Origin: Thermoanaerobaculia bacterium
Lineage (GTDB): Bacteria > Acidobacteriota > Thermoanaerobaculia > UBA5066 > DATFVB01
Assembly: GCA_050747885.1 (NCBI GenBank)
Contig: JBOGJO010000034.1
Span: 69 to 64,068, forward strand
Reading direction: 5' to 3'
DNA: 64,000 nt
Below are positions 39,121-50,130 of the stretch, in pieces. Numbering within the stretch: position 1 is the first letter of the stretch; every line of letters begins with the position of its first letter. Made by a program: the position numbers and the translations under genes. The notes under the pieces were generated by a model, which was given only the letters and a program-made list of their open reading frames with translations, was not told the origin of the DNA and did no database searches.

Positions 39121-39633
39121 ATGCCTGCGAAAAAGGCGAAAAAGAAGACGAAAAAATCCGCGCCGAAAAGGGCCGCGCGCCGTCCGGTAAAACGCGCGGC
39201 AAAGAAAATACAGGCGAAACGCGCGCCGAAGAAGAAGTCCGGAGCGCTCGGTCTGACCGACGCGTCGCCGTCGTTCACCGTCGACGACCTCGAGAAGAGC
39301 ATGGCCTGGTACCGCGACGTCCTGGGGTTCTCGATCGACGAACGCTGGGAGCGGGACGGAAAGCTCATGGGCGTGTCGCTCCAGGCGGGCGGCGTGACGT
39401 GGATGATCGGCCAGGACGACTGGCAGAAGGGCCGCGACCGCCGGAAGGGCGTTGGATTCCGGATCTACTGCGGCATGAAGGGCGACGTCGACGCGTTCGC
39501 GGCGGCAATCAAGGCGCAGGGCGGCCTGCTCGACACCGAGCCGACTGACCAGCCCTGGGGAAGCCGCGACTTCTCGATCTCGGATCCGGACGGCTTCAAG
39601 ATCACGATCGGAAAAGAAACGCGCAAGCGCTGA
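39121..39633 (+). CDS. VOC (glyoxalase/bleomycin-resistance fold) protein with an N-terminal Lys/Ala-rich histone H1-like tail
   Basis: N-terminal about 45 aa PAKKAKKKTKKSAPKRAARRPVKRAAKKIQAKRAPKKK. Then a VOC domain (…FTVDDLEKSMAWYRDVLGF…, …DPDGFKITI…). Confidence 0.7.
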   Translation: MPAKKAKKKTKKSAPKRAARRPVKRAAKKIQAKRAPKKKSGALGLTDASPSFTVDDLEKSMAWYRDVLGFSIDERWERDGKLMGVSLQAGGVTWMIGQDDWQKGRDRRKGVGFRIYCGMKGDVDAFAAAIKAQGGLLDTEPTDQPWGSRDFSISDPDGFKITIGKETRKR

Positions 39634-39823: not shown

Positions 39824-39900
39824 GCGCCCGTAGCTCAACTGGATAGAGCATCAGACTTCGGATCTGAGGGTTGGGGGTTCGAATCCCTCCGGGCGCACCA
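39824..39900 (+). tRNA. tRNA-Arg (anticodon TCG)
   Basis: Manual fold: acceptor GCGCCCG/CGGGCGC, D-arm GCTC…GAGC, anticodon stem TCAGA/TCTGA with loop cTTCGga, T-arm GGGGG-TTCGAAT-CCCTC, 3' ACCA. Confidence 0.85.
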
Positions 39901-40155
39901 AATTTCGCTCCACTTCGTTCCGCTTAGGCTTCGCGCGTCCTTCGCTGCGCTCGGACAAATTTGGACGTCTGACCTGGGGGAAGCTTCCCCCATCTGAATC
40001 GAGTTGTCCTTCAGGTCGTCGAGGGAATCCGCGGGGGGCTGGAACGGATGCCGCTCGACTCTGAAGCCTGGCACGCTGCCGAGGGTCGGGCAGGCTTCCT
40101 TGTAAATCGGGTTCCGGTTTCCGCTGCCCGAGGAAGCGGCCGTCGGCGACGTGAC

Positions 40156-40243
40156 GACGATGAAAATTCCCGAGACCCTACGGGAGCAATATTACGGCGA
40201 TGGAAACTCGCTCTTCTTTCGCTGGATTGCGGCGAGGTGACTG
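40156..40243 (+). repeat. 88-bp direct repeat copy A (encodes a 26-aa peptide MKIPETLREQYYGDGNSLFFRWIAAR)
   Basis: 86/88 identical to 48439-48526. Both differences are synonymous third-position changes in the peptide frame. Confidence 0.8.
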
Positions 40244-40251
40244 GTGAGGAA

Positions 40252-40437
40252 CTAAACCCGCATGAGTTGCGGGGGGTTGTCGTAGTGGCGGTCGCGGTCA
40301 TGCAGCACAGAGTTGCTCTGGAGGACGAGCGCGGCGACCCACATGTCGTTGGTCGGAATTGGAGTTCCGGCGACGCGGAGCTGTCGGAAGAGCGACACGA
40401 GGCGTGCGGTTTTCTCTTCGCCGCGGCAGAGATCCAC
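40252..40437 (-). pseudogene. Truncated PIN-domain (VapC-like) toxin remnant
   Basis: Translation …GTPIPTNDMWVAALVLQSNSVLHDRDRHY… matches the VapC C-terminal ND.WIAA…L.T.D motif. Only about 60 aa are present. Confidence 0.4.
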
Positions 40438-40464
40438 GTGGCGGTTCGTGTCGAGTCCTGAGCA

Positions 40465-40935
40465 TCACTTTCGCCCCGTCGGCCTTGAGAGATGGGCGGC
40501 GCAATTGATGAACCCCGGCTCACGAATCGAGCCGCAAATCGGACACAGCCCGGCCTTTCGTCGTTTCGCCACCCGCTGTCTCGCGTAGGCGCGCTCTTGC
40601 TCGCGATGAAAACGGCAAAGCCGAGTTCCCGTCTTCACAGCTTTGCCGCACCTCTCGCAGCGCCCCGCCCTTGCGCGTTGGCGCTTCAGGGCACGGCTGA
40701 AGTCGCGCATTTCCTTGAGATGTCTCTTGCAGCAAACGTGAGGCTTAGAGGCTGGGCGGGCGCACTTGACGCACCGCCCGACTGCCTTCAGCTCTGATGT
40801 TCTGCGGCGCGAATGCTCGGCGCGCATTCTCCGGTGCTCGCCGCAGACCGACAGTCCGCGAAGACGCTTCTTCGTGCAGTGAGAGCACCGGTCAGAAAGC
40901 TTGCGTCGGTGGATCGCTTTGCGTCTGGAGGTCAT
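40465..40935 (-). CDS. Basic protein with four tandem C-x2-C-x9-11-C-x2-H zinc-finger-like repeats
   Basis: Repeats CSHC…CGEH, CVKC…CCKRH, CERCG…CRFH, CPICG…CAAH. Each is followed by an Arg/Lys-rich stretch. Codon usage is atypical for this genome. Confidence 0.6.
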   Translation of the reverse strand: MTSRRKAIHRRKLSDRCSHCTKKRLRGLSVCGEHRRMRAEHSRRRTSELKAVGRCVKCARPASKPHVCCKRHLKEMRDFSRALKRQRARAGRCERCGKAVKTGTRLCRFHREQERAYARQRVAKRRKAGLCPICGSIREPGFINCAAHLSRPTGRK

Positions 40936-40953
40936 GGCCTCTCGCACTCGCCG

Positions 40954-42063
40954 TCATCGCCTCTCTTCTATCGGGGGCGGCGCCAAGGGCTGAACCGGGC
41001 CGGAGATCGATGGTTCCACGTTCTGAGGAGGCGCGATCTCACTTGATCGTTCTGCTTCGGGGCGCAGCTTGCCGAGAAGAGAGGAGAAAGACTTCGCCGT
41101 GTCGTCGGAGCCAGCCGGAAACCTTCCGAGAAAGAACTGGATCTGGCTCTTTGAGGCCGTGGCCGGAATGACCACCACCCGGGCGGTGGCGAAGACTTTC
41201 GATAGACTCGCTCGATAGAGCCTCGCGCGGCCTGCCGCCGGGGAGCGAGCCACCTGGTCCGCAATCGCCAGAAAAGTCTGCCGTTCAGCCCGCGCCGCCT
41301 CGGTGATCTCCTTGTTCCGGCTTTCTGCCTGTCGGACGTCGGTCTCGGCCTGCGCGCGGGCAAGTGAAAGTGCTTGCGACGCTTTTCCCTGAGCCTCGCT
41401 CACCCGCCTTTCTCTCCAGGCGGCCGCGTCGGATACTGCGTTGAAGGCGCCCGCCGCCTCCGCGGGTGGGCTGACCGCCGCGAGGGAGACCTGAAGCAGA
41501 ACGATTCCCGTGCGTGTTTGCTCGGCTGCGGCCTGAGCGGCGCTTCGGACAGCTTCCTGCAGAGCGCTCTTTCCCGTGGTCAGCACTTCGTCGACCGGCA
41601 AAATGCTGATCTCGCGGGCCAGCGCGGCAATTGCGGAATCGAGCAGCACGCCGTTGGGGTCGTATTGCGCAGTACGAAACAGGCCGGCATCCTCGATCCG
41701 GTACTGCAACTGTCCGCTGATCTCGACGAGATTTTCGTCGCCGGTAATGAACTCCAGCGTTTCTGTCTCTCTTCTGTTTAAAGGAAGCGATCGCACCGCC
41801 CCGACCGCTACGACCTCGAATTCCTCCATCAGGGGAATAGCAAAGGTCGCCCCCGGCGACACTCGGCCGTCCACGAGCTTCCCGAGCCTTCGCCGGAGAC
41901 CCCGCTCGTCATTGCGGACCACCCGGATTCCCGAAGCCATGAGAACGAGAAGGGCGAGAAGAAGACTCGCGAGCGCGCCTATGCGTCGGCGCCGATACAG
42001 GGCGGCTGCGGCCGCCCGAATCCTGACGACGTGACGGGGCTGGGTCAATTCGGGTTCGTTCAT
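40954..42063 (-). CDS. SPFH/Band-7 family protein (HflK/HflC-like)
   Basis: N-terminal TM. SPFH core …LEFITGDENLVEISGQLQYRIEDAGLF…. Coiled-coil Ala/Glu-rich C-terminus. Start overlaps the upstream stop (ATGA). Confidence 0.8.
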   Translation of the reverse strand: MNEPELTQPRHVVRIRAAAAALYRRRRIGALASLLLALLVLMASGIRVVRNDERGLRRRLGKLVDGRVSPGATFAIPLMEEFEVVAVGAVRSLPLNRRETETLEFITGDENLVEISGQLQYRIEDAGLFRTAQYDPNGVLLDSAIAALAREISILPVDEVLTTGKSALQEAVRSAAQAAAEQTRTGIVLLQVSLAAVSPPAEAAGAFNAVSDAAAWRERRVSEAQGKASQALSLARAQAETDVRQAESRNKEITEAARAERQTFLAIADQVARSPAAGRARLYRASLSKVFATARVVVIPATASKSQIQFFLGRFPAGSDDTAKSFSSLLGKLRPEAERSSEIAPPQNVEPSISGPVQPLAPPPIEERR

Positions 42064-42956
42064 GGGTGATGGGCGCCCGTTCCCGGCCCCTCATTGAGCA
42101 CCTTCAGCATCGGACTCTTCGAGTCGAGAAAGATTGTGGTCTCGGCTCCGATCGACTTTTCGTACCCGTGCAGGGCTCGAAGAAACTCGTAGAGCCGCGG
42201 GTCGCGCCGATACGCCTCCCCGACGAGGCGCGTGGCTTCGGCCTCGCCCTGCCCCCGAAGAATCTCGGCGTCTCGCGCCGCTTCGGCCAGGAGTGTGCGT
42301 CGCCTCTCGTCGGCCTCGGCTTCGATCTTCTGACCCGCCTCTTCCCCTTCGGAGCGAAGGCGCAAGGCGATCCGGGCTCGCTCAGCGCGCATTCTCGCGA
42401 CGATCGCTTCCCGGTTCTGGCCCGGAAAATGGACCTGTGAAAGCCACGCCGCGTCTGCCTCAACGCCGAGACTCGCCCTCGCGAACGCGTCCACCCTCTG
42501 CCGGACTCGTTCGGTGAGCTCCGCCGTCCGAACGGTGCCCGGCTGGGTGGAGAAGAAAGCCTCCGATGGCATGCGCCCGGCGGCTGATCCGAGGGAGGAG
42601 ATCGCGAGATCGATCAACCGGGCTTCGGCACCGTCGACGTCCCGGACTCGTTGGAGGAAGAGAGCCGGGTCGGAGATTCGCCAGAGCAACGAAAGCTCCA
42701 GCACGAGGTTTTTCTTGTCGGATGTCAGGAACTCCGTCGGCGGAATCCGAAACAGTATCCGGCGGCGATCCAGCCGGAACACCGACCCGATCGGCCTCGG
42801 GAGAATCAGGTGCGGCCCCGGCGCGAGAGGGCCGGAGACGAGGCGCCCGAACCTCGTTGCGAGGGCGACCTCGGTTTCGTCGACAATGACCAGGGAGTCG
42901 AGCGCCAGTGCGACGATCGCCCCGACGAGCAGGAACGCGAGTGTCGTCTTTTTCAT
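42060..42956 (-). CDS. SPFH/Band-7 family protein (HflC-like)
   Basis: MKKTTLAFLLVGAIVALAL… (signal anchor). …FLTSDKKNLVLELSLLWRISDP…. ATGA overlaps at both ends. Confidence 0.8.
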   Translation of the reverse strand: MKKTTLAFLLVGAIVALALDSLVIVDETEVALATRFGRLVSGPLAPGPHLILPRPIGSVFRLDRRRILFRIPPTEFLTSDKKNLVLELSLLWRISDPALFLQRVRDVDGAEARLIDLAISSLGSAAGRMPSEAFFSTQPGTVRTAELTERVRQRVDAFARASLGVEADAAWLSQVHFPGQNREAIVARMRAERARIALRLRSEGEEAGQKIEAEADERRRTLLAEAARDAEILRGQGEAEATRLVGEAYRRDPRLYEFLRALHGYEKSIGAETTIFLDSKSPMLKVLNEGPGTGAHHP

Positions 42957-45247
42957 GGAGGTGCGGGTCCTTTCATGTCGGTCTTGGGGGCAGCCGGCGT
43001 GCCCCAGTCGAAGATTCTCGGCTCGACATTGGCGGGGAGGATGACCTTCGGCCGTCCGTGCAGCGCACGCTCGATCGTGTTCCACCAGAGACGGAGCCGT
43101 GAGGCTGCGAGCCGGCCTGCAGCGGCCGCCGCCTGGAGCTGGAAGGAATGCCCTTCTCCTTCGGCCCGCAGGATCGTCTCCGTGCGATCCGACCGGGCGG
43201 CGGCCAGCTCCGTGGACGCCTGAGCGCGAGCGAGAGGAAGCGCGGAGTCGAGCTTTCCGCGGGCCTCGAAGATCCTGCGTTCTTTCTCCTCTGCGGCGCT
43301 GCCGACATCCCGAAACGCTGCGACCGTCTCTTGCGGTGGATGGAAGTCCAGTATGTTGACCGCGCCAACCGAGAGCGGAATGCCACTGCGGTCAAGCTCT
43401 TCCTGAAGTCGAGCACGCGCGGTTTCTTCGAGCTCTCCCCGCTGCTCTGTCAAGGACGTGTCGATCCCGCGTGTCGCGAGAAGGCTCTTGACGACGCTCA
43501 AGAACGGCGGGCGGACCGCGTCGATACCGTCGCGGGTTCGAAATGCCAGCTGGTACGGGTCCCGTACCCTCAGGTGGAGCGCGGCTTTGATCTCGACCAG
43601 ATTCTGATCGCCTGCCACGAACGATGCTTCTCCGGGCATGTCGTCCGAGCTCGTGTAGATCGAGTGCCAGTATTCAGAAAAGGGATCCCAACGGATTCCC
43701 TGATAATCGGCGACCGGCTTCCCACGGAACCCCACATCGACCTTGAGAAGTTGCTCCGCCGGAACGACCCTGAAGGCGCCCAGCGGCGGCGGCAGCGCCC
43801 AGTGCCATCCCGCGGGGAGCGCGAATGGATTCGCACGGCCGAGAGTCTCTCGAATGGCGACCGAGCCCGGCGGGACACTGACGAATCCTCGCGCCATCCA
43901 TAGCAAGACCGCGACAGCGCCGCCGGCGCCGATCAGACGAACCTTGTTCGCGGTCTCGGCTCTGTGGAGGCCCGACTGAAGACCTCGCCGAGCGGTCTCG
44001 GGAACGAGACCTTGCACGGCTTCACGGATCTCCCGGCGTCCTTGCTGCCATCCCACACGAAGCAGTGACACGAAAAAGACAATTCCAAAAAGGACGCCGA
44101 AGAGAATCTCCCAGCCCGAAACGTTCTCCGTCAACAGCGGCTGGCCGGTATATCCGGGCCCGGTCAATGAGCGGCGCAGCCCATGAAGAATCAGCCCGAA
44201 TGCCAGCGAAATCGAAAAGCACGAAATCAGGAGGGCCCGAATATATTTTCGGCCGAAATGCCGACGCAGGACGAGAAGGCTTGCTGGATTCGTGATGGGC
44301 CCGGTCAGGAAAATCACGAGCGCCGCGGCGGGGAAGAGGCCTTTGGCGACAAGGACGGCCGCCAGCGGGATCGTCCCGGAGGCACACACGTTCAGGGGGA
44401 TGGCGATGAGCGCCGCGAAGACGAACTGGCCGAACAGTCCCCCGGGAATTCGGGACGCAAAATCCTGCGGCAGAAGCGAGGCGAGAAAACCGGATAGCAG
44501 AAACCCGAAGAGGAGCGGCCAGGCTATCGCGTCGAGGAGCTCTCCGAAGCCATAGAGTGAGACTTCTCGAAGGGCTCGGGCCGCCTTCACAAGGAGCGGG
44601 CTCGCGGTCGCCGGCCTCTTATTGGCGCCCGGCGCTTCGCGCTCCACCGCAACGTCCGAAATAGCGACCGGCTGCGGTCGCGCCCGGAAGGCTACCCATT
44701 TGCGGCGAATGAGGTGTAGCCAAAGATTCATGCGCCGCCATCCGCGCGGCAACTTCCGCCGGGAGTCGAGACCCGGCGTCATTGCATCCGCCGTCGCGCT
44801 CGGCGCATCAGGAGGTCCCCAGGCTGCCGAGGCGATAACAAGAACCGCGCCGAGAATCGCCGCGCACAACCCGGCAACGACCCTGGCGATGGCGAAGCCC
44901 CAACCAAAGAGACCCGCTGTGAGAAAGACCGCATCCGGGCTGTCTTCCGGCGTCGAGACCAGGAACGCAGCCACACTCTCGGGCGTGGCGCCCTGCTTTC
45001 TGAGCTCGAGCGCGACCGGGAGAGTGCCGCAGGAGCAGATGGGAAGCGCTACCCCCGTCATGAGCCCGGCTCGAACGGATCGCAAACCTGGCGAGGATAA
45101 GCTTCGCCGAATTCGTCTCCTTCCGCTGACGAACCGGTGGAAGAAACCTGCGACGATGAGGCCGGCAAGCAGGTAGCCGCTGCTTCTCGCGAAAAGTTGA
45201 AGCGAGAGCGAAAGCGTCTGCTCGACGAGGCCCAGAAAGCCGCTCAC
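42953..45247 (-). CDS. Fusion protein: COG0701/DUF318-type permease (ArsP/SO_0444-like, CSCG motif) plus a C-terminal SPFH (HflK-like) domain
   Basis: N-terminal about 330 aa polytopic region with the GVALPICSCGTLPVALEL motif. C-terminal …FVAGDQNLVEIKAALHLRVRDPYQLAF… SPFH domain and coiled coil. Confidence 0.7.
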   Translation of the reverse strand: MSGFLGLVEQTLSLSLQLFARSSGYLLAGLIVAGFFHRFVSGRRRIRRSLSSPGLRSVRAGLMTGVALPICSCGTLPVALELRKQGATPESVAAFLVSTPEDSPDAVFLTAGLFGWGFAIARVVAGLCAAILGAVLVIASAAWGPPDAPSATADAMTPGLDSRRKLPRGWRRMNLWLHLIRRKWVAFRARPQPVAISDVAVEREAPGANKRPATASPLLVKAARALREVSLYGFGELLDAIAWPLLFGFLLSGFLASLLPQDFASRIPGGLFGQFVFAALIAIPLNVCASGTIPLAAVLVAKGLFPAAALVIFLTGPITNPASLLVLRRHFGRKYIRALLISCFSISLAFGLILHGLRRSLTGPGYTGQPLLTENVSGWEILFGVLFGIVFFVSLLRVGWQQGRREIREAVQGLVPETARRGLQSGLHRAETANKVRLIGAGGAVAVLLWMARGFVSVPPGSVAIRETLGRANPFALPAGWHWALPPPLGAFRVVPAEQLLKVDVGFRGKPVADYQGIRWDPFSEYWHSIYTSSDDMPGEASFVAGDQNLVEIKAALHLRVRDPYQLAFRTRDGIDAVRPPFLSVVKSLLATRGIDTSLTEQRGELEETARARLQEELDRSGIPLSVGAVNILDFHPPQETVAAFRDVGSAAEEKERRIFEARGKLDSALPLARAQASTELAAARSDRTETILRAEGEGHSFQLQAAAAAGRLAASRLRLWWNTIERALHGRPKVILPANVEPRIFDWGTPAAPKTDMKGPAPP

Positions 45248-45283
45248 ATCATCTCGGCGTCCGGGGAAGCGTGTCCGTCATCG

Positions 45284-47716
45284 TCAGAACGTGTACTTCA
45301 CTCTCGCCGCCAGCGTCCTCGGCGGAATCACGTGCGTTCCGCCGAAGGTCGAGAGCACGTTGTAGACACCTTTCTTATCGAAGGCGTTGAGTAAGTCGAC
45401 CTGCAACGAGACGGGAACTCCGTAGCGCGTTAGATCGGCCCCGGCAGAGAAATTCCAGATCGTGCGGGGCTTGATCCGGTTTGGATCGAGGTTCGTGTTC
45501 GACGTGAAGTTGATGTATGGGTACGCGAAGGCGTTGTCCGGGTCCTGCAGGATCGTTTGGTCCGCCCCGGTGACGAGCCCGGAATCGTAACGGGCCATCG
45601 CCGCCGCCCAGAACCCGGACGATCCAAAGGCATAGTTCAACCCGCCCTGAATTTGGAGTTTCTCGTCGTGGTCGATGACGAAGGGCCCCCCGTTGACGGC
45701 GTCGAGCGCGCCCGAGTCCAGGAAGAGGCCGCCAGCCAGCGGCGGCACGTAGATGGCGCGCGTGTGGCCGACCGAAAGGTACCCTCGAAAGCCATCGATG
45801 GGAGCCGAGTCCAGGCGCACGTTCCACCCGTGGAGTTTTCCTTGCGAAAACGCCAGCGGAAAGACGATCCCCGTGTTCTGGAACTGGTCCTGGTCACCCG
45901 CAAATTTCGAGTCGCGCCGCCAAAAATCGACATCCAGGCGGACATAGGGGCCGACTTGCTGCTGGAGTCCCAGGTCATACGCGTCCTGCCGCTCCGACGG
46001 GACGAAGAGGAGACCGTCGCCGAGCGCTCTCGACTGCTGCACGTCCGGCGGGGCCAGCGCCGCGGCCTCTTCCGAGGAGGAGAAGAGGATGTTCTCGTAC
46101 TCCGGTGTCTCGAAGATCCGGTTGTACGAGGCTCGAAAGACGGACTTCGTTTGGGAAATGAAGTAGCTCACACCGACTCTCGGCTCGAGCTGGGATTCTT
46201 TCAGTGGAAAGCTATTATGGTCATAGCGCAGTCCGATCTGTGCCGTGAGATTTCCGAGCCGGATCGTGTCCTCCGCGAATCCGGCCAGGTAAGTGACCGT
46301 CTTGGATTGTTCGAACCGGAAGACTGCGCCCCCTCGCGTGAGGTCATAAGGCGCGAGATTGGGATTGTAATCGGGCGACGAGGGATCGTTGAGGTTCGGG
46401 TCGGTGATCCCAAAGGAGAACCGCTCTTGAATGGGATAGCTCTTCAAGATGGCTCCGAACTTGAGCTCGTTCGCGTTGCCCACCTGAATCGAGAGTGTCG
46501 GCTGGACGCCGTAGTTATCGAGCGACCGCTTGGAGCTCGTGATGACCGACGGGTCGTTGGGCGAACCGCGGTACGTGAACCGGTTGTTCCGGGCGAAAAG
46601 CGTCGTGTCGAGCACGGTCGTCGAGCCGAAGACGTGTTGCCATCCGAGGTTCGCGTTCCAGTCGGTCGTCTCGACGGTGTTGTCCGTATCCGCGGCCTGC
46701 TGTGTGAGCGTGTTCGTCACATCCCGATTGGTCCTCCCGATGAGTCCCGAAAGTCGGAAGCTGTCGCCGCCGCCTGGCGTCGTTCTGTCGAGGCGTAGGA
46801 AGGCCCGTTCGGTGTCGCCGTGGTTGTGAAAATTGTCAAAGTTGACGGGATCGAGGAACCGATCGGATTTCGAGCCGTCCACGGACCCGAAGTACCCGAG
46901 GGTATCGGAGCCCCCTCCCACCGAGGCCCCGGCGTCGTAGGTGCCAAACTTCGCGCCGCCCGCGTGGACGTCCCCGTGCGGGCCGCCGGTTCCGAGGCCC
47001 GATTTCGTCGTCAGATTGATGACCGCTGCAATCTTCTCGCCGTATTCGGCCGGCACGTTCCCGTAGATGACCTCCGCGGACTGAAGAATGCCGGGGTCGA
47101 TCGAGTTCGAAAACGTCGTGCCGATCTGGTCCGTGATCGGCTGGCCGTCGACGACGTAGCTCTGCTGGCTGTGCGCGCCCTGAAAGTGGTAGCGCCCGTT
47201 CTCGTCGGCGGAGAAACCGGGCGCCTGGATGACAAGCGCTTCCATGCCGCGCGACGGAGTCGCCGCAGGTGCGTGCTCGATGAACGACTTGTCTATGTCG
47301 ACGTGCGATTGCGACGAATCGGTCTCAAGGACCGCCGCCGGCTTCTCCGCCTCCACCTTCACCGTTGCTGTCACCGATTCGAGAGCGAGGGTCACGGGCT
47401 GATCGATCGGCGCGGTGCTCCGCACGTCGATTGCGAGGTGTTGCGTCGCGAAGCCCTGCACCTCGACGTGGAGTTCGTAGGGGTTGAACGGAACGTTGAA
47501 GAATGAGTATTTCCCGTCCGCTTCCGTTACGGCCTGCGCCTTGAACCCGGTGATGTCGTTGCGAAGGACGAGCGGAACGCCCCCCATCGGTTTCCCGTCG
47601 GGTCCGGTTACCGTCCCGCGAATCGAACCGGCGGCAAGCGCCGCGAGACAGTTGTTCCTACCCAGGACAAGCGAGACGGACAAAGTCAAAATCGATATCA
47701 GGATGCGATTTCTCAC
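45284..47716 (-). CDS. TonB-dependent outer-membrane receptor with N-terminal CarboxypepD_reg-like domain
   Basis: GTG start after GGGAGGAAA. Signal peptide. …GTVTGPDGKPMGGVPLVL…TEADGKYSF… is a CarbopepD_reg fold. Plug and 22-strand-barrel length (810 aa). C-terminal …KYTF. Confidence 0.85.
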   Translation of the reverse strand: MRNRILISILTLSVSLVLGRNNCLAALAAGSIRGTVTGPDGKPMGGVPLVLRNDITGFKAQAVTEADGKYSFFNVPFNPYELHVEVQGFATQHLAIDVRSTAPIDQPVTLALESVTATVKVEAEKPAAVLETDSSQSHVDIDKSFIEHAPAATPSRGMEALVIQAPGFSADENGRYHFQGAHSQQSYVVDGQPITDQIGTTFSNSIDPGILQSAEVIYGNVPAEYGEKIAAVINLTTKSGLGTGGPHGDVHAGGAKFGTYDAGASVGGGSDTLGYFGSVDGSKSDRFLDPVNFDNFHNHGDTERAFLRLDRTTPGGGDSFRLSGLIGRTNRDVTNTLTQQAADTDNTVETTDWNANLGWQHVFGSTTVLDTTLFARNNRFTYRGSPNDPSVITSSKRSLDNYGVQPTLSIQVGNANELKFGAILKSYPIQERFSFGITDPNLNDPSSPDYNPNLAPYDLTRGGAVFRFEQSKTVTYLAGFAEDTIRLGNLTAQIGLRYDHNSFPLKESQLEPRVGVSYFISQTKSVFRASYNRIFETPEYENILFSSSEEAAALAPPDVQQSRALGDGLLFVPSERQDAYDLGLQQQVGPYVRLDVDFWRRDSKFAGDQDQFQNTGIVFPLAFSQGKLHGWNVRLDSAPIDGFRGYLSVGHTRAIYVPPLAGGLFLDSGALDAVNGGPFVIDHDEKLQIQGGLNYAFGSSGFWAAAMARYDSGLVTGADQTILQDPDNAFAYPYINFTSNTNLDPNRIKPRTIWNFSAGADLTRYGVPVSLQVDLLNAFDKKGVYNVLSTFGGTHVIPPRTLAARVKYTF

Positions 47717-47798
47717 GGGTTTCCTCCCTCAAATGTGAACCCCTGCGCGCGCGGCGCAAGCCGCGAGCGATACCGTTGTCTATTCGTTCGACGGGGGA

Positions 47799-48209
47799 TC
47801 AGATGAGGGAGGGAGGACCGCGGGCAAGAGATTCGGAACGGAATCCAGAGAGTTGAGGACGATCCTGGGCGGCGCGAACAGCTTCAACTGTTGCGAGAAA
47901 GATCCGCGCGGGGGGTTGAACTTGAATGCCGGTGAGGTGCTGACGCAGACAGGCGAGGCAGGGTTCGACTTCGACGATCAGGTCCGGGTGCCAGTGGGAA
48001 GCCGTCGGGTTGGCGCAGGAGATCTCGTGAACCTCGCGGACCGTGTTCGAGTCGTCAAAAAGCCATTCCGCCGTCAGCGAGCTTGAGTGATGATGGGTCG
48101 CCGTTGCGACGACCACCTGGGAGAGCAAGACAAGAAGCGTGATCCCAAACCGGAGAGAGGTTCGCGTATTTCGGCAGGCTTCACGCCGGCTCACACGGTT
48201 GGTGGTCAT
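47799..48209 (-). CDS. Small secreted His/Cys-rich protein (possible periplasmic metal-binding protein, DUF2946-like)
   Basis: Start MTTNRVS…. TM/signal segment LRFGITLLVLLSQVVVATA followed by THHHSS and CLACL. Lies directly upstream of the TonB-dependent receptor. Confidence 0.4.
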   Translation of the reverse strand: MTTNRVSRREACRNTRTSLRFGITLLVLLSQVVVATATHHHSSSLTAEWLFDDSNTVREVHEISCANPTASHWHPDLIVEVEPCLACLRQHLTGIQVQPPARIFLATVEAVRAAQDRPQLSGFRSESLARGPPSLI

Positions 48210-48438
48210 TCCACCGGAGGATACCACTCCCGGGACGGCGATTCTCTGTGTCCACATGCGTTTTTGCGTCGTCGCTCTCGATCCGATCAGACCGAGGACC
48301 CAGAATAGGCCTACGACGGCCCGGTCGTGACTTACGGCACGATGATGATGCCGGGGCCCTTGACCACCGAGCAGTTGCTTCCGCCGTTGTCGCAGAGGGA
48401 AGCCGTGTCGTCGTACGGCTTGCCGCTACTCGCGTCCT

Positions 48439-48526
48439 GACGATGAAAATTCCCGAGACCCTGCGGGAGCAATATTACGGCGACGGAAACTCGCTCTTCT
48501 TTCGCTGGATTGCGGCGAGGTGACTG
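48439..48526 (+). repeat. 88-bp direct repeat copy B (same 26-aa peptide ORF)
   Basis: See copy A. Followed 8 nt later by the tRNA 3'-half repeat. Confidence 0.8.
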
Positions 48527-48533
48527 AAAGACG

Positions 48534-48578
48534 TCAGACTTCGGATTTGAGGGTTGGGGGCTCGAATCCCTCCGGGCG
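48534..48578 (+). repeat. Direct repeat of the tRNA-Arg 3' half (att-like remnant)
   Basis: cagacttcggatTtgagggttgggggCtcgaatccctccgggcg matches the tRNA sequence at 43 of 45 positions. Confidence 0.75.
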
Positions 48579-49517: not shown

Positions 49518-49698
49518 GCCGAAGGTCCTCTCGTCACGTTCACGGCCCGGTGCTAAACCTCTCGCGGGGCAGAGGGCGTCGAGCGAAGGAAGGACGGCTC
49601 ATGCGGACAGGTGAATCGGTGGAGCATGGATCTCGCGGAACGACCGGCGGTCGCCCCGCGCGGCCCCGGCGGTCGCGCGAGACGAGCCTGGCCGTGAG

Positions 49699-50130
49699 TT
49701 ATGGCACGATGATGATTCCGGGATCCTTGACCACCGAGCAGTTGCTTCCGCCTTTGTCGCAAAGTGAAGCCGTGTAGTCGTACAGCTTGCCGCTGCCCGC
49801 GGCACCGGTCGGCAAGCCCGAATTGCACTGCTGGTGAGTCCCGCTGCAGTCCTTGATGTTCTTGAACGCGTCGGGATCGGCGAAAACGATCTTGACGTTG
49901 GGCATGTTCGGGTCGATCGACCTCCACATCACGGTGTTGCCGTTCTGCTTGGATATGTAAGCGAGCTTGCAGCTCACCTGTGCGCCCACGTCGATTTTGT
50001 GATCCTGGGGGTCGGTGTTGCAGGGCGTCTTCCAGTCGGAGGTCTTCGCCGCCGCCATTGCGGACAGCGGGAACGCCGCCAGAGCGGCTGCGAAGACAGC
50101 CGAGCGGAACATCGTGCGATTCGGGTCCAT
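49699..50130 (-). CDS. Small secreted Cys-rich protein (hypothetical)
   Basis: ATG at 50130 with an AAGGAGGAG Shine-Dalgarno sequence. Signal peptide MDPNRTMFRSAVFAAALAAFPLSAMA. 8 Cys. A diverged copy of its 3' end lies at 48331-48433. Confidence 0.6.
   Translation of the reverse strand: MDPNRTMFRSAVFAAALAAFPLSAMAAAKTSDWKTPCNTDPQDHKIDVGAQVSCKLAYISKQNGNTVMWRSIDPNMPNVKIVFADPDAFKNIKDCSGTHQQCNSGLPTGAAGSGKLYDYTASLCDKGGSNCSVVKDPGIIIVP

Follow-up and report, generated by a model that had tools for sequence, protein, structure and literature searches.

The gene, its repeat units and their predicted fold

The window analysed here is the whole 64,000-nucleotide (64-kb) stretch of contig JBOGJO010000034.1, from a Thermoanaerobaculia bacterium (assembly GCA_050747885.1). 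Its minus strand carries a short gene for a strongly basic protein with four tandem Cys/His repeats, here called the zinc-finger (ZnF) array gene and the ZnF protein, which is flanked by a tRNA-Arg gene and a VapC remnant on one side and by a permease/SPFH gene block and a TonB-dependent-receptor-like gene on the other (Table 1). The open reading frame (ORF) is a real, functional gene. A spurious ORF of a GC-rich genome was considered and ruled out by the existence of homologues, by the ratio of nonsynonymous to synonymous substitution rates (dN/dS), and by a confident predicted fold. A GTG codon at 40947 offers an alternative start in frame with the ORF; the ATG is preferred because the N-termini of the two nearest homologues (MSRK and LSRR, compared with MTSRRK in the window protein) fit it.

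The four motifs of the protein, CSHCTKKRLRGLSVCGEH, CVKCARPASKPHVCCKRH, CERCGKAVKTGTRLCRFH, and CPICGSIREPGFINCAAH, each read exactly C-x2-C-x10-C-x2-H. They start at 40887, 40773, 40659, and 40545 on the minus strand, so that consecutive motifs are separated by exactly 38, 38, and 38 residues. This pattern has four matches in the six-frame translation of the window, every one of them inside the ZnF ORF, and none of 200,000 shuffled versions of the protein contained three or more copies. The motif count, the 38-residue period, and the shuffle test thus confirm the four tandem Cys/His repeats described in a first-pass annotation of this DNA; the middle spacing given there, x9-11, was slightly loose, as it is always 10, while the C-x2-C and C-x2-H parts stand. 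All 16 ligand positions, forming four sets of three Cys and one His (CCCH), are intact. The composition of the protein includes 34 Arg, 15 Lys, 2 Asp, 8 Glu, 13 Cys, and 8 His, with Arg and Lys together accounting for 31% of residues. Unit 2 carries an additional Cys at position 68 and is the best conserved of all units across the three orthologues (the window protein and its two nearest homologues, P0001 and P0002), and unit 4 is degenerate in P0001 and conserved in P0002.

Table 1. Features of the window around the ZnF array gene (coordinates are window positions; aa, amino acids)
Feature	Coordinates	Strand	Details
ZnF array gene	40465..40935	minus	156 aa; ATG start; stop codon 40465-40467
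Unit 1	40780..40893	minus	aa 15-52; ligands C17, C20, C31, H34; motif 40834-40887; helix aa 32-51
Unit 2	40666..40779	minus	aa 53-90; ligands C55, C58, C69, H72; motif 40720-40773; helix aa 70-89
Unit 3	40552..40665	minus	aa 91-128; ligands C93, C96, C107, H110; motif 40606-40659; helix aa 108-127
Unit 4	40468..40551	minus	aa 129-156; ligands C131, C134, C145, H148; motif 40492-40545; short helix, then C-terminus
Small protein gene, first of cassette	47799..48257	minus	152 aa; His/Cys motifs; HHHSSS run; no Pfam match
TonB-dependent-receptor-like outer-membrane protein gene	45284..47716	minus	CarboxypepD_reg and Plug domains
Three-gene block (permease-SPFH, HflC-like, HflK-like)	40951..45283	minus	about 4.3 kb; separates TonB-like and ZnF genes in the window only
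SO_0444-type Cu/Zn efflux permease fused to SPFH	42953-45247	minus	single 764-aa ORF; ArsP_1, NF033936 at 214 bits; C-terminal SPFH/HflK domain
HflC-like gene	43085-42060	minus	
HflK-like gene	42063-40954	minus	
VapC (PIN) remnant	40252..40460	minus	in frame directly behind ZnF stop codon; no start codon
tRNA-Arg (TCG)	39824..39900	plus	3' end faces 3' end of ZnF gene
Direct repeat of tRNA-Arg 3' half	48534..48578	plus	45 nt; 43/45 identical to 39851-39895; candidate distal attachment site

AlphaFold2, supplied with a 150-sequence alignment, modelled the ZnF protein with a mean predicted local distance difference test score (pLDDT) of 96.5 and a predicted template modelling score (pTM) of 0.74. 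In this model, every unit has a two-residue bridge pair (a hairpin) around its CxxC, and each of the three long helices begins right after the third Cys of its unit; a fourth, short helix spans residues 146-149. The predicted unit, a knuckle hairpin with the last two ligands placed at the start of a helix, is compatible with the treble-clef-like arrangement suggested at first reading. The Arg/Lys-rich helix that had been expected after each unit is predicted for units 1-3, where it is 20 residues long, and reduced in unit 4 to the short helix. Sequence searches of the Protein Data Bank (PDB) with the ZnF protein and with a profile of 137 units returned nothing significant, and no solved structure matches.

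Conservation among homologues had been singled out beforehand as a critical check, and in a MAFFT alignment of 150 full-length homologues the Cys columns C17, C20, C31, C55, C58, C69, C93, C96, and C107 are at least 90% invariant. This alignment provides an independent measure, since the 139 units from which a consensus was built were chosen by regular expression, which makes their own Cys conservation circular. The consensus reads G-L-C-x2-C-x2-P-A-x2-G-x3-C-x2-[H/C]-L followed by a basic helix segment, the fourth ligand being His in 71% and Cys in 28% of the units. Arg or Lys is conserved at unit positions 25, 29, 32, and 35/36, which fall on one helical face and form a basic stripe. Comparison of the ZnF gene with those of P0001 and P0002 gave dN/dS values of 0.17 and 0.29, both rough because dS is saturated (about 1 or more); the neighbouring TonB-like gene gives 0.11. 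Because of these low ratios, the ZnF gene is judged to be under purifying selection, although the protein changes faster than its neighbour, with a dN about three times that of the TonB-like gene.

A family of tandem arrays and its relation to WRC

Relatives of the ZnF protein were collected by an exhaustive phmmer search of 1.84 billion cluster representatives, which returned 268 matches at E<=1e-3, including 13 at E<=1e-10. The best were P0001 (5.7e-31; 173 aa, 55% identity to the window protein), P0002 (2.4e-28; 207 aa, 46% identity), P0003 (1.2e-20), and P0004 (4.2e-15). The matches are arrays of the same 38-residue unit, each containing 1 to 9 motif matches that are most often spaced 38 residues apart; even among orthologues the number of units varies, from three plus one degenerate in P0001 to four in the window and up to six in P0002. 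The window protein shares significant similarity with the other arrays, together with the 38-residue period and the consensus followed by a basic helix. Judged by these comparisons, it belongs to a large uncharacterised family of arrays of variable length, from three to nine or more units, that occur mostly in phage-like or mobile-element contexts.

Other searches with the ZnF protein yielded little. Neither its ATG-initiated nor its GTG-initiated form is on record, and the genome of the window is missing from the species-representative genomes and from the JGI metagenome scan; gene content by itself suggests a genome of acidobacterial type. Scans against Pfam, NCBIfam, PHROGs, and PADLOC found nothing significant, and the absence of matches in the Pfam and NCBIfam scans bears out the earlier statement that the protein resembles no common bacterial regulator family. 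A word-indexed homologue search, which is insensitive, gave no matches for the ZnF protein, only two short proteins for a two-unit profile, and only itself for P0001. Searches of GenBank phages and PLSDB plasmids by tblastn, with the window protein and P0013 as queries, detected nothing significant, and P0009 matched cultured phages via its HNH domain only.

Most of the related loci recovered from metagenomes and IMG/VR have a phage-like character. Within the family, array units are repeatedly strung onto nuclease domains (L004, L005, L011, P0004, P0008, and P0009). In L004, the units precede an HNH-like C-terminal tail, read from the sequence and not from a Pfam scan, and the gene adjoins phage structural-looking genes; in L005, a phage contig of 36% GC, one unit is fused to endonuclease VII (6.6e-21); and in L011, an HNH_3 domain is followed by two units near a PAPS reductase gene. 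Another array adjoins PAPS reductase in L003, L012 is an IMG/VR contig, and P0016 and P0020 are stand-alone arrays set among consecutive short ORFs that overlap and lack annotation. A strict back-translated consensus unit was found on 78 IMG/VR contigs, with all matches in frame within arrays; this count overstates diversity, because about 66 of the contigs (among L026-L103) hold one identical 170-aa, three-unit stand-alone array protein, at about 41% GC and mostly from one sample series. The 170-aa protein marks a single abundant phage lineage. Distant relatives occur in two metagenome-assembled alphaproteobacterial genomes, in one of which the gene adjoins an integrase fragment, a Fic protein, and an XRE regulator. 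By this distribution, the array module is typical of mobile DNA and has been attached repeatedly to DNA-cutting or promoter-binding domains, and it is chiefly this pattern that argues for DNA binding.

A Pfam scan of the best 150 of the 268 homologues at E<=0.01 placed the plant-associated WRC domain (PF08879) at the top of the list, with matches in 66 of the 150 and a best E-value of 6.2e-16. It was followed by DZR_2 (PF18912; 46), DZR (PF12773; 45), HNH (16), HNH_4 (8), zf-C3Hc3H (PF13891; 7), HNH_5 (6), Sigma70_r4 (5), Endonuclease_7 (1), and RNA_pol_A_CTD (1). For WRC, P0009 scores 58.3 bits and P0001 29.1 bits, compared with a gathering threshold of 28.6, and precomputed database annotation already places PF08879 on P0001 and P0151. 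The WRC matches span profile positions 15-41 of 43, beginning with the second Cys. The earlier reading had held that clear homology to a known family would count against a novel array. The unit does prove to be related to WRC, zf-C3Hc3H, and DZR, although the window protein itself stays below the thresholds of WRC and DZR, scoring 12.2 bits (E=0.21) for DZR against a cut-off of 27.3.

The plant WRC domain follows the pattern C-x7-WRC-x10-C-x2-H and binds one zinc ion with nanomolar affinity. Zinc is required for its folding, which yields a beta-hairpin, a loop, and a short helix, and the domain was reported to be without a homologue of known structure (bioRxiv 10.1101/2025.01.03.631214). On double-stranded DNA, it covers about 7 bp, and located at the interface are the Gly-Arg that precedes the first Cys, K-W-R-C from within the motif, and an Arg beyond the His; bacteria and phages are unmentioned in that structural study (bioRxiv 10.1101/2025.01.03.631214). 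The window units share with WRC, which occurs in plant GRF, JMJ24/28, and HRT-type proteins, the CCCH ligands, with one site in each of the four units, and an identical C-x10-C-x2-H spacing. Gly-Arg before the first Cys and a basic residue before the second recur in window units 2 and 3, and the segment beyond the His is basic as well. The predicted hairpin, loop, and helix would be placed alike around the metal, and the order of elements predicted by AlphaFold2, a bridge pair and then a helix after the third Cys, is compatible with the hairpin-loop-helix order of WRC. The differences are equally clear. The first two Cys are 2 residues apart in the window units, forming a knuckle, whereas they are 9 apart in WRC, in a long hairpin, and the window units lack Trp; where WRC has a short helix, that of the window protein runs to 20 residues and is strongly basic. 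Moreover, the window units form a head-to-tail array of period 38, whereas most GRFs carry one WRC, and a plant setting contrasts with the bacterial, phage, or mobile-element setting found here. The unit looks like a distinct prokaryotic/viral, short-hairpin relative of WRC that probably works in a similar way, without being a member by Pfam criteria.

Other known modules resemble the array less closely. The zf-C3Hc3H family (a "potential DNA-binding domain"), DZR, and DZR_2 are generic Cys-rich ribbon or knuckle models that catch pairs of consecutive units; they describe two-site modules without the long basic helix or the 38-residue periodicity, and the families carry no function. Phage homing endonucleases of the HNH and GIY-YIG types use small DNA-binding modules, including NUMOD-type modules and zinc fingers. 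Members of the present family likewise string units onto HNH or endonuclease VII domains in phage genomes, but the window protein has no nuclease domain and its unit is not a NUMOD helix-turn-helix. Eukaryotic C2H2 arrays are similar by analogy, with one zinc per unit of about 30-40 residues, a hairpin followed by a helix, and variable-length tandem arrays; they differ in their ligands (C-x2-4-C-x12-H-x3-5-H as opposed to CCCH), show no sequence similarity, and have a much shorter helix.

The array is not a new kind of zinc finger, because databases already tag some members with PF08879. Three aspects are undescribed: the organisation into tandem arrays of 38-residue units, the association with mobile elements and nucleases, and the linkage on the chromosome to a TonB-like receptor gene; in the literature searched, where WRC is treated as plant-specific and without structural relatives, no description of bacterial or phage WRC-like arrays was found.

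A conserved cassette and the proposed function

Both nearest homologues lie beside an orthologue of the TonB-like gene. P0001 was found on six independent contigs, 40 nt downstream of the orthologue, which in L013-L016 shares 84% amino acid and 79% nucleotide identity with the window gene and ends at the same codon. The P0001 gene is followed, 14 nt on, by a tRNA-Asn(GTT) gene on the opposite strand (L013, L014, L016, and L017; 1168-1242 in L014), in the same tail-to-tail geometry as that of the ZnF and tRNA-Arg genes in the window. P0002, on a 46-kb forest-soil contig (L020), lies 44 nt downstream of an 81%-identical TonB-like orthologue, which is itself preceded by a homologue (7051-7440 of L020; 43% identity) of the small protein at the head of the window cassette; the flanks are otherwise unrelated to those of the window. 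The order of ZnF and TonB-like genes is thus kept in three genomes that have diverged to a dS of about 1 or more. Taken together, the gene orders point to a conserved cassette consisting of the small His/Cys protein, the TonB-like receptor, and the ZnF array.

In the window, this cassette is interrupted by the permease/SPFH block, which is absent beside both nearest homologues. Because these homologues directly follow the TonB-like orthologue without it, the block seems to have been inserted later. Both of its junctions, 40951-40959 and 45275-45283, carry the 9-mer CGATGACGG (minus strand), which has no other copy in the window and may represent a target-site duplication or microhomology; among random pairs of 61-nt stretches, about 3% have a 9-mer in common. 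A functional link between the ZnF protein and the SPFH/permease operon was considered and is ruled out by the synteny of the two nearest homologues. On the other side of the gene, the VapC remnant (NCBIfam VapC, E=0.0011) comprises only the C-terminal half of the family, profile positions 69-118 of 125, and appears to be debris. A terminator-like hairpin lies within it, at 40257-40273. The co-occurrence with SPFH operons or VapBC loci that had been proposed as a check was looked for, and neither is present beside the two nearest homologues; the ZnF protein therefore seems tied to neither, and its adjacency to the SPFH operon and VapC is put down to accidents of insertion and decay.

With moderate confidence, we read the ZnF protein as a DNA-binding zinc-finger array. 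By analogy with WRC, each unit would fold around one structural Zn2+, held by the C-x2-C knuckle in a short hairpin and by the C-x2-H at the first turn of the helix; zinc binding, like DNA binding and the regulatory target, is something we infer. The array would lie along double-stranded DNA, with contacts made by the G-[R/L]-C hairpins and by the basic stripe on each helix. The suggestion of nucleic-acid binding made at first reading is thereby favoured, and DNA is preferred as the ligand because the family is fused to HNH, endonuclease VII, and sigma-70 region 4 domains and is linked to plant WRC. Because the ZnF protein has no catalytic domain, the stand-alone array would act as a DNA-binding regulator or an architectural protein, and its most probable target would be the three-gene cassette that the ZnF gene terminates, on the tRNA-flanked island. 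Within the DNA-binding reading, regulation of the adjacent TonB-like cassette is put forward only tentatively.

Several points weigh against this interpretation. The window protein has no match to the Pfam WRC model at E<=1 and so remains under its gathering threshold; of the pattern C-x7-W-R-C-x10-C-x2-H, its four units all keep C-x10-C-x2-H, but the first spacing is x2 and not x9, and the Trp is absent. CCCH fingers often bind RNA, for which an Arg content as high as this would be suitable too. The analysis identified no candidate operator, and it is gene order in three related genomes that ties the array to regulation of the TonB-like cassette.

One rival reading is that the protein binds RNA, as most characterised CCCH fingers act on RNA (bioRxiv 10.1101/2025.01.03.631214). 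On this view, the ligand of the CCCH units and the Arg-rich helices would be structured RNA, such as phage or host transcripts or rRNA, in place of DNA, and the protein would have a ribonucleoprotein-type role. Such a role would suit the combined Arg and Lys content, and the top structural neighbours in BFVD are auto-named "putative ribonucleoprotein", "NMD3 family", and "Nin one binding protein", while two of the 150 homologues weakly match the RNase P Rpr2 zinc ribbon. These BFVD names are, however, unverified automatic labels for generic zinc ribbons, and the recurrent fusion partners (HNH, endonuclease VII, sigma-70 region 4, and the C-terminal domain of the RNA polymerase alpha subunit) act on DNA or promoters. 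The sole characterised relative, WRC, binds double-stranded DNA, and no Rfam RNA besides the tRNA was found near the ZnF gene. We therefore regard an RNA-binding role as unlikely. We take a similarly sceptical view of a decaying mobile-element leftover without current host function, for instance a phage moron or the module that once targeted a homing nuclease since lost. Atypical codon usage, the tRNA-flanked location, the adjoining VapC remnant, the variable number of units among orthologues, and the threefold higher dN would all be expected of such a relic, which is nevertheless difficult to reconcile with the intact set of 16 ligands, the dN/dS of 0.17-0.29, the gene order kept over a dS of about 1 or more, and the confident predicted fold.

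Proximity to the Cu/Zn permease raises the question of metal handling, in which the ZnF protein would serve as a zinc or copper buffer, chaperone, or sensor together with the permease-SPFH and TonB-like genes. The 13 Cys and 8 His within 156 aa and the HHH and Cys motifs of the upstream small protein lend themselves to this idea, as does the start of the ZnF gene, which lies 6-18 nt past the HflK-like gene of the block headed by the SO_0444-type permease. That adjacency must be recent, given the absence of the block beside both nearest homologues; the family is found mostly in phage-like gene runs or fused to nucleases, WRC-type CCCH sites are structural sites of nanomolar affinity and not exchange sites, and the fixed ligand spacing within a repeated fold is unlike metallothionein-type clusters. 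Metal handling is thus highly improbable. Least credible of all, and close to being dismissed, is the idea that the ZnF protein serves the downstream VapC as an antitoxin of unconventional type. The VapC-like frame does start right after the ZnF stop codon, and in another frame an ATG overlaps the TGA (TGATG), a layout typical of toxin-antitoxin pairs. Yet the VapC piece is a weak C-terminal fragment without a start codon, and no PIN gene lies downstream of P0001, where the tRNA-Asn gene follows at 14 nt, or of P0002. PADLOC gave no match, antitoxin families as such not having been searched. An antitoxin of VapC is largely refuted by this synteny and by the fragmentary state of VapC.

Under the DNA-binding reading, the hypothetical protein of the window locus would gain a probable role, with that of a DNA-binding regulator of the TonB-receptor cassette on the island as its tentative form. 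A broader and more speculative proposal, which we consider rather doubtful, is that the 38-residue unit is a modular DNA-reading repeat with a fixed number of base pairs per unit. Phage homing nucleases would use arrays of it to recognise long targets, bacteria would have recruited stand-alone arrays as regulators, and the "plant-specific" WRC would have branched off from this prokaryotic/viral family as a single-unit form. If the arrays do read DNA unit by unit, they would constitute a new kind of natural, modular scaffold for DNA recognition, account for target finding by a class of phage nucleases, and provide an evolutionary source for the plant WRC domain.

tRNA repeats, codon usage and the island question

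The ZnF gene had been described as island-borne and foreign in its codon usage. Its usage is indeed atypical, with a codon-preference fit of 0.088 compared with 0.33-0.53 for 14 flanking genes. Among its neighbours, the HflK-like gene (0.069), the small protein gene (0.085), the permease gene (0.18), and the HflC-like gene (0.26) also have low values, and the TonB-like gene (0.36) is borderline. The GC content at third codon positions is 0.71 in the ZnF gene and 0.78-0.85 in the flanking genes, whereas the overall GC content of the gene, 0.636, is the same as that of the flanks.

The tRNA-Arg gene and the direct repeat of its 3' half enclose 8.7 kb, with the whole cassette inside. No integrase or recombinase was found among the ORFs and in Pfam scans of 39900-48578. 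Thus, the tRNA-Arg direct repeat 8.7 kb away, the atypical codons, and the position of the cassette beside a different tRNA gene in the genome of P0001 speak for an island, and the lack of an integrase and the flank-like GC content speak against one; the island reading is partly supported, and we take the segment to be either an old island that lacks an integrase or cargo carried by tRNA-targeting elements. A scan for sigma-70 promoters found no sites.

Additional repeats occur at the edges of this segment. One of 88 nt, 98% identical between its copies, lies at 40156-40243 and 48439-48526, and both copies carry a 26-codon ORF, MKIPETLREQYYGDGNSLFFRWIAAR; the second copy stops 8 nt short of the tRNA fragment. 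Another, of 116 nt and 88% identity, lies at 48319-48434 and 49686-49801. The two repeats may be remnants of successive integrations. At 39121-39633, on the plus strand, a gene encodes a protein of the glyoxalase/bleomycin-resistance fold whose N-terminal tail, about 45 residues long and rich in Lys and Ala, is similar in appearance to histone H1.

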